DNA of 64,000 nucleotides from Octopus vulgaris (Eukaryota), in assembly GCA_951406725.2 (NCBI GenBank), contig OX597816.1:28210001-28274000 (forward strand), in the 5' to 3' direction. Made by a program: the position numbers and the translations under genes. A model generated the notes under the pieces. It saw only the letters and a program-made list of their open reading frames with translations. It did not search any database and had not been told where the DNA came from. How positions within the stretch are numbered: the stretch's first letter is position 1; the number at the start of each line of letters is the position of its first letter. This document shows, piece after piece, positions 1 through 18,237 of this stretch.

Positions 1-630
1 ACAAACATAACATACATACATACAAACATAACATACATACATATCATACATACATACATACATACATTCATTCATACATACATACATACATACATACATA
101 CATACATACATTCATACATACATACATACATGCATGCATGCATACATACATACATACATACATTATGGCTGGCCCCTCGTTATCGTGTATGGCCATTGCA
201 CGAAGCTTAACTGTTACTGGTGCTGTGATCGAATGTGACTTTTTAGCCTAGCTAAAGATCTACAATGTCTTGTACATAATTGGCAACTAATATCTTCACC
301 GGTAATAGCCGGCTGTAGATGTAACTTGGCTTCATGTACCTTTGCATGTCGTTTAAGTCCTCCTGCCGAATTACACTCTCTTCCACACGCCCGACAGATA
401 TGATCAGTATGGTGTGTAACACGACCACCAGTGGCCAGGTTGTCACTCATCTGTCTCGTACATACATACTCATACATACATACATACATACATACATACA
501 TACATACATACATACATACATACATACATACATACATACATACATACATACATACATACATACATACATACATACATACATACATACATGCATACATACA
601 TATATATATGCATGCATTCATACATACACA
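1..630. repeat. (CATA)n microsatellite, interrupted by a LINE 3' fragment
   Basis: Direct CATA repeats at 1-162 and about 457-630. Confidence 0.95.
163..456 (-). mobile_element. RTE-like LINE 3' fragment (C2H2 zinc-finger C-terminus plus 3' tail)
   Basis: Minus-strand peptide HICRACGRECNSAGGLKRHAKVH...CQLCTRHCRSLARLKSHIRSQHQ* followed by a short tail (ACGAGGGGCCAGCCA). The same tail recurs at 38158-38215. Confidence 0.65.
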
Positions 631-1364
631 CACCTACGTATGTGATTGTGTTTGTGTATCTATACCACTCAGCAGTTCGGCTTAAGAAAAAATAATTTAA
701 ATATGGGGTTCGTTATGATTTCTAGAAGTTTTCAGGAGGGATAGTAATTAATTTCAAAGTAGTACGGATGTTTAATCTCCCCGACTTCCCTAAAACTGGA
801 TCTTCTGCGTCAATCAGCTTGTAGTATCCATCCACTTTGTGAAGGCCCCATGAAGCTCCTGCAAAGTGAATACATCGAGGAACACTGTCCCTTCCTCCAT
901 GTTCTCCTTCAACTTGGGGAACCAAATTCTGGACTGTAGCGAGTGTGTGAGGGACACTTTTGGTGCTATCTCTGTCATTGTCAAATACTTGCTTACCCGA
1001 AAGCTGCACAAAAACATTTTATCCATCGACTGGCTAGATGGAGTCAGGTGGTTGAAGATGATGCCCTTGCTATGGAAACGAGGTATCATCATGAGCTCCT
1101 AAGTGGGCTTGCTTTATCTGGCCTCTTTTAGCCCCGAAAGAAAGATGCTCAGCCGATGCAAGTTAATCCATATCGTGTCTAAAGAGTTTAATACGTTTCA
1201 GTGGCATTTCCCCCAGTTTAACACAAAAGTTATTGAATGGTAAGCTTTCAAATTGTTTTCACGTCGCGACTGCTTTCTACAACCTAGTCAGCCGTGACAA
1301 GCTGTGTTTTATTAGTGTGTACACAGGCGTCTCGTATAATCGGGATGGCAGGTCAGTTAGTAAA

Positions 1365-11635: not shown

Positions 11636-13859
11636 ATATGATAGTTTTATGCGTCCATCTTTGGTCAAGTGGACAGGATATATATATATAAAATATACAT
11701 ACATGCATACATACACACATACATTCGTTCATATATACATACATGCACGCTCACACATGTCGCTCACACATGTATGTGTATGCGTGCGCATGTGAATATA
11801 TTCAGTACAGTTATAAAGAGAATATATGCAAATAAAGAAATGCAGTTTGTCGTCACATTGTTTAAACTACTTCATATTGCTTGTACTGACAAAATACAAT
11901 CAACCTTGTAAATCTAATACATTGTAGACTAAGATGAATGAAAATTGTGATAATGTACATACACTGTTGCAAGGAAAAACGTATAGTGCACTTTGCTCTA
12001 GTGAATAATTAACCACAAAGTAACATTAAAATAAAAGAAACTAAAGACAGAAATATTCAGTTTAACTGTAAATCATAATCGGGGACCTTTATATAACAGA
12101 AAAAACACAACTTATTTAAAACGTGCCTTTCTATATAACCAAGACTTTTCAATCTGTCACAGTCTCATAGCAAATAGTTAGAATTAACAGTGTTACGAAC
12201 ATTATTACAGGAATATTGAAATACTGCTCGAACGTCATTTCAATAGTCCAAATTCTTTTTTCCAAAATGTTATAAATATACTGTTATAATTTAGATAATG
12301 TTACCAGAGTATTTCTGTCTATTAATTACTCTATTTCTCATACTCCGGTAGATTTTACTTAGGTAGATTTTTCTTATACTCTGGTAGATCTTATTTACCC
12401 CGTGGATTCTAATAGAACACTCAAACTCTCATTTCAATTGTACAGAAACATATCAGAGTGAACAATTTATGTTAGTCCATATCATACTTACTTATTTCAT
12501 TATCTGTTAAATTTAAATCGTTTTCACAGCAATGCAAATTCTCAACGTGTTCTCTCAACTAGCTTGAAAAATGAGAGAAACCAAGTTATTTCCTTGTCAT
12601 TTAAAGACGGTTCTCATTAGACAAGGTTGCCTCTAAAACGAACATGATGGTCACGATTGGAATATGTTGATTATATGTCTTCTCGACGGCCAGAGCTGAC
12701 CTCTAGCTAAGCATAATATCTGAAGGTCTATTTCATCAAGGATTCTTTAGCACAGAGCATCATACTTCTGAATATTTTCAGGACAATGGGTCTCCGTAGG
12801 GGAATGAATATACGCAATTAGCACTTCAGAGGCATCTTACAATACTTTAATAATTATATAGTTATATTTCAGAATGCAATTTAGGTGAACGTGTCTATCA
12901 ATGAATTAATTGACAATAAATGAAGGCTATACACAAATTAGGAGACACTATTCGGTTCTAAGTGAGGTTTGTATAAACTAGTAAATATCTAGTTGCATCA
13001 AATAATAAAAAACAATGAAAATAAGAAAAAAAAGAATATAAACACTGGAGTGTGCAGAGCGGAGATAAAATAATAAGAGTGGTCAACACAGAAACAAATA
13101 TTGCAATTGACTTGTTGAAAGGAACATATTAGAAAGCCAATAGATATAATGGACAGGTAACAGAATAAATAGCAACGTTAAAATAATTGCACCCAATGAC
13201 TTAACAATCAATAATGTCTGATTGATCAATCAATTTGATTGTGGTCTCACCACTTAATAAATGACCAGTGCGTTTCGCTTTTTGTAAACAACATAAACAA
13301 TTATAAAACACGGGATAAAAATCTATATTCTGTCTGGTTTACACACCTGAAACTGCTAGCATGCATTATATGTATAACCTGACTGTGGGAATTTCTGAAT
13401 GTTTAAATAAGTATTCGAGTTTGTGTGAAGTGCACACAATAGTTAATGCTAGTGGTAGATGTTAGCACTTGCTCTCTAGTTTATATGATACGCAATTTAA
13501 GGCAACTACATAGTCACGAGGTGTTCTGCGTTTAATAAATTATAGAAAATTAGTCGAATAACAACTTCTGTATGGACGGAATATTTTTGATGAGCTGGAA
13601 CCTTTATGCTGAGAAAATTGGTAGGCATGGAGACACACTAAATATTCTGTGAAAGAAACAAGAAATGCCTCTGAATAATAAACAGCATTTCAATAAACAT
13701 GGCCTGAGAAGCAGGTAATATAGGAAAAGTTCTACACGACTTTCTCTTTCTCTTGTATCTATTTTAACACCCCAGCACCACCCTATAGTTATCTACATTG
13801 CATTCAACCTCTCTATAACATATCCCCAGATGCCAATTTTTCCGGAATTTTGCAGCATT

Positions 13860-14340
13860 ATGTTATTCCCTTAGTTTTACATGTTTATACTTTTTATCGC
13901 CTTAAAAGTACTCTCCATTCGAAGCGATGCATCGGCCCAGACGCGATTTCCACTGTTCGAGTTCGTGCTGGAACTCTTACAAAGTGATGCCTCATAAGAC
14001 CTTCACCGATTTTTTTTTCACCTCTTCCACATCGGCAAATTTCGCAACACCAACTTTGTCATCAGTGATGACATTCGAAATAAAAGCTGGATCATTTACC
14101 AACTGTTTTTACAGGTAACGAAATGCATTCCATCGTGACCGCTTTTGATCTTTTGTGATCAAATGAAACGCAAATTTTGCTGCAACTCTTTTAATTCGCA
14201 AATCCTCGCTCAAAATTCGTTGGTAGGAGCTCCTGGACATACCATTCACACTAAATGATGAACTATTCGTCAATTGTTCGGTACGGTCCGCCAAGATTAG
14301 TTCGTGAATTTTCGTGATGTTTTCATTTGTTCTAGAGGTC
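13860..14340 (-). mobile_element. mariner-family transposase relic
   Basis: SYQRILSEDLRIKRVAAKFAFHLITKDQKRSR resembles the AAKFVPxLLT linker and is followed by an ITDDK-like motif. Confidence 0.7.
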
Positions 14341-14349
14341 TACCGTCGA

Positions 14350-15160
14350 AAATCCCTTACATGTAGAGAACTTGCAGAACAGTTTAACTTAGACCACACA
14401 ACTGTTCTGGGTCAACTGTAAAGGATCGGAAAGGTGTCAGTGGTTGGAAAATGGGTCCAGTATGAACTGTCTTCGAAGCATCTGCAACAGCGTGTTCTTT
14501 GTTGTCAGTCATTGCTTTCACGACACCTTAAGGAACTAATTTTAAGAAGGCTAGTTACAGGTGATGAGAAGTAGATATTTTACCATAACGTTAGACACTC
14601 GACAACATCGTCGGCATACTGATGCCTGAGAGTCGCAACAAGTGGCTTCTAGCGGTGGATGTGTGAACTACAACGGAGATCATGTAAAGTTTATAGTGGG
14701 ATAGTGAAGGAATTGTTCACTACCAACTGTTAGACAACAACAGAGAATTCACTGCTAATCTCTACTGTGAACAACTTTATAGTTTGACCACACAACTGTC
14801 TTGAAGAGTCAACTGCTAAGGATCAACAGAAAGGTGTCACCTTCCATGGGTCCATGATAATCCTCGTCCTCACACAACTCGATTGACCAAAGATGTCTTG
14901 GAAGAACTTGGTTGGGAAATACAGATTCTTCTACTTATTCTCCTACTTATTCTCCAGACCTTGCTCTTTCTCATTATCGCTTGTTCAGGAGTTACAGACT
15001 ATTTGAATGGTCTTAGATCGACATCAAGAGAAGAGGTTGAAAATTATTAATATTTCACACCAAAACCTAAACAATTTCACAAGCGTGGTATTTTGGTATT
15101 TACAAGCTTGTTTACAAATGGTATGAAGTTGTAGAAATCAACAGAAATTATATTAACGTA
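14350..15160 (+). mobile_element. mariner transposase pseudogene (5'-truncated)
   Basis: TCRELAEQFNLDHTTV...GKWVQYEL...RLVTGDEK*IFYHN...HDNPRPHT...LEELGWEI...YSPDLALSHYRLFRS, with stops and frameshifts. Confidence 0.9.
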
Positions 15161-15186
15161 TATATAGTGTCTTAATCAAGGGTTTC

Positions 15187-15221
<35 letters not shown>

Positions 15222-15683
15222 CCTTAATTGTTAATATATATATATATATATACACATATATATTTACATATATATATACACACGTACAATTACGTATATA
15301 TACTTATTTATAGATATATACACAGATATATGAGTGCGTATATGTGTGTGTGAGGGAATTTGTGTATGTGCGTGTGTGTGTATGTAGATGTTTGACTCAT
15401 ATAAAAGTAGAAAAATCTTTTAAATAAACATATTAAAATAAACTTTCATCCTATAAAATCTATGGTATATTTTGTCTTCCATAATATGTGCTGAGTGGAA
15501 ATTATGTTTTCTGTAAAATGTTGTATTGTGTAATTTAGCTTAGAAAGTATCCATACTATGTTTTATGTTGCCTGTCATTATTACGTCATAAAGCAAAGCC
15601 TCGAAAAGATAGATTTATTCCATTGAAACGTAAAGTATTGTTTGCATCTAGTATACGACTTAATCTAAAAAGGGTTCATGTTG

Positions 15684-15993
15684 GTAAGTAAATAAAACAT
15701 TATTATAAATCAATGGTGCCAATGATTATCGAAACTCAGGTATAAAATATAAAGAGAACTAAAACGCGACGTGACTCCAGTGATGATAATAACCACAAAC
15801 GTTACTAGATTTTGCAAACTGAAGAGCTAAATAATTTCGAAAATAGTTTTGCGGAAATGTATTTCTGATGTTAGCTCTGTATTTAATTCTCAGATTGATA
15901 TGTATTCGAAGTCGAAATACCCAAATCTATTTTCTATAACGATCAAAGTTATATTTAGGGAGGATTTTCTGATATAAATTCCACTCTTTCTAG
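15684..15993 (+). other. Putative 5'-UTR intron of the 421-aa gene
   Basis: G|GTAAGT at 15684 and TTCCACTCTTTCTAG| ending at 15993, one base before the ATG. Confidence 0.4.
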
Positions 15994-15994
15994 T

Positions 15995-17260
15995 ATGGAC
16001 TTATTTGAGAAAACATCAATCTCCTTTTACTGCATGTGGATTTTGATAGAGATAATCGCATCAACAAAACAAAATAGTAAATTTTCCCTGATTACACCAG
16101 CAGACATAGAATATACAACAGATTTTGTAGCACTTCAACAACGCGAGAAACGAAAAGTAATAATGAATGCCACTAAGTCAGTTGTAACTATCTTACTAAT
16201 TCTAGTGTTCATGAATACAAGCATGAAAAACAATATTTGGTATTATTGTCAACCATTTGCTAAGCTGATGGACGTTGGTACTTCTTTTCATGTATGGTCC
16301 TCCGGATTACCACTCATAGTTATCTATGGCATTTATGAATTTTGCAACATGTGCTTCGACCATTTTGAAGGAAATGAGAGAAGAAATACTGGTTTCGACA
16401 ACAAAGTGTGCATCCTTACGATAGCAATATATGTTATTGTTAATATATTTTCATTTGCTGGACCTATGTTTGCTATCTACGCATCTTTCACAATCTCAGT
16501 ATTTGTTGTATTTGGTCCTGTAGCTATTTACTATATTTCAATGAAATGTTTCCCAGTTTACTCACTACAGGAAGGATCGTTGCGAAACGAGATATTCCAC
16601 ATAGCAAATCGCAACGAAATTATCATAAGGGACATAATATTTATAACGTACCCTAGAGACATCAGAAATGTGGCCCTAAGATTTGTCTCCAAATCTGAAT
16701 GGATATTTAGAAAGCTGTTCCTCGATGCAAAGCATTTAGAATCATTGCAGTCAACGAATCAGAAAGGAAGCAATTCACGATTTCTTGTATCTAAGCTCAC
16801 TGAAAAAGAACAACGGAGTCGCCTTCTTCTTACCGATAAACTTGGACATATACAGTACAATCATCAATTGAAACTTACCATATTAATCGTTGTTAACCTG
16901 TTCGGAGCTGGATTAATTTTAAGTATGATATTTCCTCCGCAAAGTATAAATGTTAAGTGTAGCGAATACTACAGAACACTCTATACAAGGATTATATATG
17001 TACTGTTCAATATAATAATTCCATATAGCCACGCCGTCAAAATATTATACAATGCAACACAAAGATCATTCAACAAGAAAGTCGATTACTTCATAATGAG
17101 TAACTATCAAGGACATATACTAAAAAAATTACTTAAAAAGGAAATAATATCGGAATGTCCAGGCCAGTATTGGTTGTATCGATTAATTCATAATAAAGAA
17201 CGATCCTTATCAATGAGACTGTTGTGTTTAAATAAGGAGCCAAAAGTAATTTATGTATAA
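15995..17260 (+). CDS. Divergent STE24/ZMPSTE24 (CAAX prenyl protease 1, peptidase M48)-like multi-pass membrane protein, predicted catalytically inactive; CDS has no introns
   Basis: Stop-free 421-aa ORF in AT-rich DNA with several hydrophobic helices. Collinear with STE24 motifs: SLQEGSLRNEI~PLPEGxLKxxI; DKLGHIQYNH~HELGHWKLGH; IIPYSHAV..TQRSFNKKVDYF~FSPYNEVL..LSRRFEFQADAF; WLYRLIHNKERSLSMRL~WLFSMWHYSHPPLLERL. Confidence 0.8.
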   Translation: MDLFEKTSISFYCMWILIEIIASTKQNSKFSLITPADIEYTTDFVALQQREKRKVIMNATKSVVTILLILVFMNTSMKNNIWYYCQPFAKLMDVGTSFHVWSSGLPLIVIYGIYEFCNMCFDHFEGNERRNTGFDNKVCILTIAIYVIVNIFSFAGPMFAIYASFTISVFVVFGPVAIYYISMKCFPVYSLQEGSLRNEIFHIANRNEIIIRDIIFITYPRDIRNVALRFVSKSEWIFRKLFLDAKHLESLQSTNQKGSNSRFLVSKLTEKEQRSRLLLTDKLGHIQYNHQLKLTILIVVNLFGAGLILSMIFPPQSINVKCSEYYRTLYTRIIYVLFNIIIPYSHAVKILYNATQRSFNKKVDYFIMSNYQGHILKKLLKKEIISECPGQYWLYRLIHNKERSLSMRLLCLNKEPKVIYV

Positions 17261-18237
17261 TGGATTTCTTAACTACAAACGATTTCCTTGGAGGAGTTCA
17301 CATACATACTTTTAGCACACTTTCCTGTCAGTCCTTTTGTTATAAAAGGTCTGACAGATCCCACTTAAATCTGTAGATTTTGTGTGTAAAATGAAATATT
17401 AAATGCTTAATCGAACCAGTCAATGATATTGCATTTTGATCAGTCAATACTCTTAAAATGTCTCCCCAGTCAAAACTAAGCAGGTATTTGCTTCTGCTAT
17501 GTAATCAAGAACACTGTAAAATTATATCCTGAAATAACAGGCATTAAATACAATTAAAATATTAAGATTTCTTAATATAAAAGATCTGTTGAAATACAAC
17601 TGTTGGTATTACTTCTTGATGGATTTGGCCCATAATCGAAGCATTTCACCTACGATCATCTAGCCATATTTTCCAAGTGTACTCTGTTCTGATTAAAATT
17701 AACAAATGTACTTTATTATAAAGAGCATGTTGTTTTGGAGCAAATATCGTTTCTATTACTAGCAAGTTAGGTCATAAAATTCTTCCTGTGCTGGCTGACT
17801 TTCGCCAGTTGTCCTCGATGATGATGATAATGATGATGATGATTATGATAACGATGATGATGATGATGTTGATAATGATGTTGATGACGATGACGACGAT
17901 GACGACGACAAGGAGGTCGCTGAACCATAACCCTAACCAGGCATTCAGAAAACGTGTGATCAATGGTGTTTCAGTCACAATTATTCTGCCTCATGAAATA
18001 CCTACGAAAGCATTATTCAGTAACTTATACATTTTTCATTTATTAAAGATTCTAAAGAATGATTCAACGGTTGTCCGGCTTCGAATTCTTCCTGGTCCCT
18101 TACTTCACGTTTTTATTGATTTATTTACCAAAAATTTTTTTTCTTCATAACCGGCATGCGTGTATGTGTGTGTTTCTCCTTCTCTCTGTGTGTGCGTGTG
18201 TTTGTGTGTATGTATATATTTATACATTTATGTACCC

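Follow-up and report, generated by a model that had tools for sequence, protein, structure and literature searches.

An intact, transcribed single-exon octopus gene for a probable STE24/ZMPSTE24-fold pseudo-protease

ZMPSTE24 is a membrane protease linked to progeria. In Octopus vulgaris, we describe an intact, transcribed gene without introns whose protein (P0001) has replaced residues of the catalytic site, and which is very probably a real pseudo-protease gene of the STE24 fold. The gene lies on chromosome C3, within the 64-kb stretch of DNA that was analysed here as a whole (28210001-28274000, hereafter the window), and a search of P0001 against the 2.8-Gb genome of its own species returned this locus as the sole match. 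The explanation that we favour, and to which we give a probability of about 0.5, is that an intact and transcribed but enzyme-dead STE24 barrel serves the membrane as a chaperone or as a natural trap for substrates, probably in the male germ line. The purpose of the large ZMPSTE24 chamber, and of any non-proteolytic job that it may have, is posed as an open question in the available text of PMC6078402. A naturally dead copy that is kept by selection would be a ready test of it, since its conserved parts mark the regions of the barrel that are needed without catalysis.

The reading frame of the gene runs for 421 codons to a TAA with zero internal stops, just as an earlier reading made from the sequence only had claimed. 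Measured from stop to stop it spans 433 aa, the longest of the 42 frames of at least 120 aa in the window, with the runner-up at 261 aa. At the local base composition, the chance of an equally long frame is ~3e-15 per start and ~1e-6 per genome. Its start codon is preceded by an A at -3 and followed by a G at +4. The three altered motifs reported by the sequence-only reading, namely DKLGH, NKKVD (aa 360-364, 17072-17086) and ERSLSMRL, were found at exactly the positions given for them (Table 1), and their register against STE24 was reproduced both by hhalign and by MAFFT with 47 rows of active STE24s.

Table 1. Positions of the gene, its transcript and its altered or retained motifs, numbered within the window.
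Feature	Position	Strand	Remarks
5' leader, transcribed	15699..15994	+	contig starts at 15669, 15699 and 15725
Four upstream ORFs	starts 15783, 15857, 15868, 15900; all end before 15995	+	15, 3, 23 and 25 codons; span 15783-15977
Pseudo-protease ORF (P0001), probable STE24/ZMPSTE24 fold	15995..17260	+	single exon, 421 aa
DKLGH, replacing HELGH	16835..16849	+	aa 281-285; first zinc His to Asp281, catalytic Glu to Lys282, second His285 retained
His290, retained	16862..16864	+	last His of HWKLGH; the same in all 47 rows of active STE24s
RSFNKKVD, replacing RxFEFQAD	17063..17086	+	Arg357 and Asp364 retained; third zinc ligand Glu to Asn360
ERSLSMRL, replacing HPPLxERL	17198..17221	+	aa 402-409; His to Glu402, Arg408 retained
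3' UTR, ~0.8 kb	17261..18067	+	contains a (GAT)n repeat (17817-17902); poly(A) added behind 18067
ATTAAA polyadenylation signal	18042..18047	+	the 13 untemplated A in X9 follow ~20 nt downstream

The replacements in these motifs affect the residues on which an STE24 protease depends. E415 and H459 both have established roles in human ZMPSTE24, and the His of the HP..xxR motif stabilises the transition state. In the octopus protein the equivalents of human H335, E336, E415 and H459 read D, K, N and E, and P0001 falls short of an active M48A protease in its HEXXH motif, its third-ligand Glu and its HP..xxR His. The claimed loss of catalytic residues is confirmed beyond this single genome, with D281, K282, N360 and E402 being identical in all three close orthologues (P0001, P0002 and P0003). 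For comparison, changing either H335 or H339 alone to Ala leaves the human enzyme with less than 2% of its activity, according to the accessible part of PMC6078402. The loss of the H335, E336, E415 and H459 equivalents argues strongly that P0001 no longer carries out proteolysis. Other residues of the site are retained, namely H285 (human H339), H290, R357, D364 and R408. An alignment of 47 active STE24s has 34 columns with an invariance of 95% or more, and each of the three orthologues keeps 13 of these. Furthermore, P0001 is basic, with a pI of 9.4 vs a median of 6.7 in active STE24s, and it is without ~11 residues that these have before helix 4; the two features together suggest that the chamber may have changed its use.

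The relationship to STE24 is remote, and standard family models do not register it. Pfam assigned P0001 to 0 families, PF01435 (Peptidase_M48) and PF16491 (M48_N) both staying below the cut-off, so that the HMMER match to these two models anticipated by the first reading did not materialise. The M48 models of Pfam had no match in P0002-P0004, and neither NCBIfam nor PDB sequence searches with P0001 gave an M48/STE24 match. Weak matches of P0001 to STT3, MarC and Fab were dismissed as noise. A reference set of active STE24s was collected by a motif scan of proteins from metagenome contigs, and 28 of these were aligned into a profile, which recovers the human (ZMPSTE24) and yeast (Ste24) enzymes with E-values of 1e-144 or lower. 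Against the 28 active STE24s, the four-member family that includes P0004 (described below) was aligned by hhalign over 337 columns with a probability of 93.9% and E 1.6e-7, with the motifs in register; leaving out P0004 lowers the probability to 52.5%. On its own, P0001 scores 13.0 bits against the STE24 profile, more than any of the 499 reported local shuffles, the best of which reached 8.8, and P0004 on its own does not rise above its shuffles, 74 of 498 of which score as high. The identity of P0001 to active STE24s is 15-19% at best, and 15-17% in structural alignments.

Structure prediction points the same way. In the ESM Atlas, the features of the orthologue P0003 gave a score of 0.93 with 203 of 256 features shared, and 30 of 30 matches fell in the M48 set; the Atlas's own model of P0003 reached a TM of 0.69 over residues 1-414. 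This predicted fold match is a test that is independent of the STE24 alignment. AF2 run on the family's four sequences alone had a pLDDT of 33, which became 77 when 47 STE24 rows were added. The resulting homologue-guided model matched ZMPSTE24/Ste24 in Foldseek (E 1e-10, TM 0.66-0.69) and in VIA (Z 24.2, rmsd 4.3, 382 aligned; next family 7.0), figures that are partly circular because the 47 STE24 rows had been fed in. The likeness to the ZMPSTE24 structure that the first reading had proposed to look for was therefore recovered in two ways, one independent (the Atlas model) and one partly circular (the Foldseek and VIA matches). Simple hydropathy places 5 segments of P0001 above threshold. 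These comparisons support P0001 as a remote STE24/ZMPSTE24 homologue, predicted to form a barrel of membrane helices with a zincin domain as its cap.

Transcription was read from the pattern of contigs in 24 listed sequencing runs, none of which is on record as RNA and for which tissues are not given. In run X9, a single contig covers 15725-17810 at a depth of 716, with zero depth at 14732-15655, and a contig of the same run ends at 18067 with 13 untemplated A. Run X19, which comes from another study and another organism, covers 15699-18050 with three contigs. There are no splice joints inside the gene in the contigs, and the expression that was to be checked was thus found in the form of an unspliced, poly(A)-ended transcript contig (X9, X19). 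Six short and shallow contigs of run X15 also fall inside the gene. Run X4 has no contig on the gene and runs X21-X24 hold next to no sequence words of it, and neither was counted as evidence. Taken together, the contigs support a single-exon polyadenylated mRNA of ~2.3-2.4 kb. TATAAA occurs at 15704, 15741 and 15748, within the leader region, and the upstream ORFs listed in Table 1 may delay or damp translation.

Close relatives of the protein are few. A search of 5.8 billion proteins led to one cluster, comprising P0002 (91% identity to P0001) and, as its second member, P0003 (95% identity to P0001), an Octopus bimaculoides protein that UniRef lists as A0A0L8I4K0, 'Uncharacterized protein'. 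When 1.84 billion representatives were searched exhaustively, the one addition was P0004 (E 1.6e-6, 22-25% identity), an unnamed Logan protein of 393 aa that reads HALGY at the zinc motif; its sequence ends soon after this motif, so P0004 may be incomplete. The best match of P0004 in the O. vulgaris genome is the window gene, and P0004 is possibly a distant orthologue in which the active site decayed by another route. A profile search brought no homologues beyond P0002, P0003 and P0004, both it and the cluster search having scored only ~8,000 candidates of near length, and no named orthologue from squid, cuttlefish or another mollusc was found in these homologue searches. P0001, P0002 and P0003 all have full-length open frames with no indel and no stop, P0003 and P0002 differing from P0001 at 21 and 37 aa, respectively; the orthologues, on whose integrity the first reading had staked its case, are open at 91-95% identity.

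The octopus gene is under purifying selection, and the claim that its frame was kept by selection is upheld by a dN/dS below 1 together with the open frames of the orthologues. Over 150 codons, the listed differences of run X19 comprise 11 synonymous and 13 non-synonymous changes, which give a dN/dS of 0.30-0.42 (p 0.006-0.036 vs neutral), on the basis of 24 of the contig's 96 differences, a listing from which sites are probably missing. A whole-protein approximation, which combines the dS of X19 with the 21 aa differences to P0003, gives ~0.18-0.25. Neutral drift would be expected to produce 5-9 stops, and none is seen in the orthologues; X19 has only two gaps relative to the genome, both in the 3' UTR. 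Positions that differ between the three orthologues number 36 of 276 in the N-terminal part and 10 of 145 in the C-terminal part, a modest contrast (Fisher p 0.07). Around the dead site, none of the 39, 46 and 24 positions of aa 277-315, 332-377 and 385-408 varies, these segments having been picked post hoc.

How did an STE24 gene come to be a single exon? The canonical ZMPSTE24 gene has many exons, and from the absence of introns we infer that the octopus gene is an old retroposed STE24 mRNA. A genome search with PF16491 led to a second copy, a single frame of 439 codons on chromosome C24 at ~18325.7-18327.0 kb (L004:799-2118, minus strand). This paralogue is an STE24 homologue (95.8% in hhalign, and 30 bits for PF16491 vs a cut-off of 27) whose zinc motifs read HQISQ and LKEAD, which makes its site dead as well, and it is 97% identical in O. 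bimaculoides, where it carries the name 'CAAX prenyl protease 1 N-terminal domain-containing protein' (P0006). Both the C24 paralogue and the window gene are single-exon dead STE24 homologues, but they have lost different residues, and a direct comparison of the C24 paralogue with the window protein detected no similarity (0.9%). An O. vulgaris gene model, P0007 (257 aa, 'hypothetical'), joins 26 residues of the C24 frame (L156:9839-9916) to unrelated exons; since it uses just these 26 residues, the C24 paralogue appears to be mis-annotated in that assembly. In a tree of 25 of 53 rows, the window gene and the C24 paralogue group together at 98/99, a grouping that is unreliable as a joining of long branches; with long branches meeting, a skewed composition and molluscan STE24 absent, the tree cannot place the origin.

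Queries with 10 motif patterns, with 4 proteins and with 2 Pfam families did not reveal an active multi-exon STE24 parent, in what was a loose search of a possibly incomplete assembly; a gap in the assembly, exons of small size or a true loss could each account for this. The matches were translated or scored with the STE24 profile, as were the surroundings of the three best of them (two stretches on C1, of 70 kb and 80 kb, and one of 60 kb on C22), and none of these candidates proved to be a STE24 exon set, all being chance or OMA1-like. One exon with HELAH, at C23:48685.6-48685.8 kb (L002:1414-1653, plus strand), passes PF01435 with 38 bits and is presumably OMA1-like. The sequence-only reading had proposed an old retrocopy or lineage-specific paralog that lost catalysis and kept its frame. 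The dead site, the kept frame and the single, unspliced exon all stand; the retrocopy origin, with no multi-exon parent located, continues to be argued from the missing introns.

The gene might have arisen in a way other than retroposition, as a DNA-level duplicate, as a gene that moved and shed its introns, or as what remains of an intron-poor ancestor, with the same holding function as proposed below. This is unlikely in our judgement. The parent has not been located and the genome has no A-run behind 18067, which would suit such an origin, but tails vanish from old retrocopies, neither a poly(A) remnant nor a target-site duplication would be expected to last this long, and two single-exon copies on different chromosomes fit retroposition. 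It is improbable, to a somewhat greater degree, that octopuses have lost the active ZMPSTE24, near-universal in eukaryotes, or altered it beyond recognition, and have kept only two ancient, enzyme-dead, single-exon descendants. If true, this would be the first natural evidence of a selected, non-cutting membrane-chaperone job for the STE24 barrel that is separable from proteolysis.

Of the known systems, ZMPSTE24/Ste24 (M48A, CAAX prenyl protease 1; PDB 4aw6, 5syt, 6bh8, 4il3) resembles the octopus protein in a full-length collinear alignment and in the predicted barrel, and the equivalents of H339, H343, D419 and R465 are kept (human numbering via the 5syt alignment). In contrast, the octopus protein has D/K/N/E at H335/E336/E415/H459, is basic, stays below the Pfam cut-offs, shares 15-17% identity and is encoded by a single exon. 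A natural parallel is found in Drosophila, for which the portion of PMC3362292 at hand reports that a tandem STE24 cluster (CG9001, CG9002, CG30461) is needed for spermatid maturation. The same portion describes CG7573, a full-length STE24 paralogue on another chromosome with an altered HEXXH; this gene lacks introns in 6 of 12 species, has been proposed to be a retrocopy, evolves fast yet is conserved, and is testis-enriched per FlyAtlas (PMC3362292). As far as that text goes, the octopus gene is like CG7573 in being an STE24 paralogue with an altered active site that was probably retroposed, a likeness drawn at the level of an altered HEXXH, and unlike it in that CG7573 arose independently in flies. 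The octopus gene would then be an independent case of an STE24 with an altered active site, a kind already seen in Drosophila. Literature searches for ZMPSTE24 in cephalopods and for CAAX prenyl protease in octopus found nothing, and no paper on this gene was among the matches listed.

An engineered parallel is the catalytically dead ZMPSTE24-E336A, which, in the available parts of the two sources, binds IFITM3 more strongly than the wild type, traps IFITM3 in an inverted form and continues to restrict the fusion of membranes (PMC9601121; bioRxiv 10.64898/2026.02.27.708584). Like the octopus protein it is a barrel without the catalytic Glu, and it is this form that binds a membrane client more tightly. 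However, E336A is a single laboratory mutation with its zinc ligands kept, whereas the octopus protein has also lost two of three ligands and is 15-17% identical in sequence.

In the non-cutting holder that we propose, the octopus STE24 barrel would persist without zinc and catalytic residues and so would not cut. It would sit in the ER or the nuclear envelope, where its chamber might still let in a prenylated tail, or a membrane segment in the wrong orientation, and hold it uncleaved. Expression would be in testis or sperm-forming cells, by analogy with Drosophila only. The model draws on the persistence of the predicted barrel and on the residues near the former active site being the most constrained (Fisher p 0.07, with segments chosen post hoc), and indirectly on the behaviour of ZMPSTE24-E336A. 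We put a testis bias at slightly better than an even chance, and the holding of clients, a tentative mechanism, at somewhat less than one. It counts against a holder that STE24 requires catalysis for its roles at the translocon and in topology, according to the accessible text of PMC9601121; the basic pI and the ~11 missing residues also speak against it. A dead STE24-fold protein might instead have a structural or membrane-shaping role only, for instance in the membranes of sperm or in slowing membrane fusion, with no client in its chamber. The dead human protein still blocks cell-cell fusion (PMC9601121, same text), and a pI of 9.4, the retention of only 13 of 34 family-invariant positions and the very high transcript depth in one run would all agree with such a role. 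We nevertheless consider it rather unlikely, as conservation among orthologues peaks around the former active site (a weak trend, p 0.07) and H285, H290, R357, D364 and R408 are retained.

The conserved surroundings of the dead site could also be read as a residual binding site, in which D281, H285 and the nearby acidic residues D364 and E402 would hold a metal or small ligand and the protein would be a metal or lipid sensor, or a rewired hydrolase. Asp can ligate metals, and all four of these residues are invariant in the three orthologues. Yet a Lys stands at the position of the catalytic Glu and an Asn at that of the third ligand, and P0004 (HALGY) and the C24 paralogue (HQISQ) decayed differently, which means that they have no replacement site in common; we regard this reading as quite doubtful. 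It is far less probable still that the gene is an expressed pseudogene drifting neutrally, or encodes an unrelated multi-pass membrane protein. Such a reading could appeal to the missing Pfam match, to an identity of 15-19% at best to active STE24s and to the lack of direct similarity to the second paralogue (0.9%), but it is already largely refuted by the open frames in three orthologues, a dN/dS below 1, indels confined to the UTR and the independent fold match in the Atlas.

If the holder model is right, partners pulled down with the octopus protein would name its natural clients. If expression turns out to be testis-biased, flies and octopuses would have made germline pseudo-proteases from STE24 copies independently. 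In addition, the analysis provides an annotation for the 'uncharacterized' octopus gene A0A0L8I4K0, which Pfam misses, and flags a second gene, the C24 paralogue, which is only partly absorbed by one Octopus vulgaris gene model.

The surroundings of the gene within the window were also surveyed. Of the 41 other long frames, 19 were scanned with Pfam, and these yielded no convincing candidate for a host or a neighbouring gene. The transposon remnant nearest to the gene lies upstream of it, at ~14500-15150 (plus strand); it is mariner-like and broken by stops and frameshifts, and we take it to derive from a Tc1/mariner-like transposase. Multi-copy reads accumulate at 13800-14700, likewise upstream. 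A short frame at 214-633 (minus strand) closes with two zinc-finger motifs of a C2H2-like type; it has weak Pfam matches below the cut-off and is possibly an exon or a piece of a retroelement.
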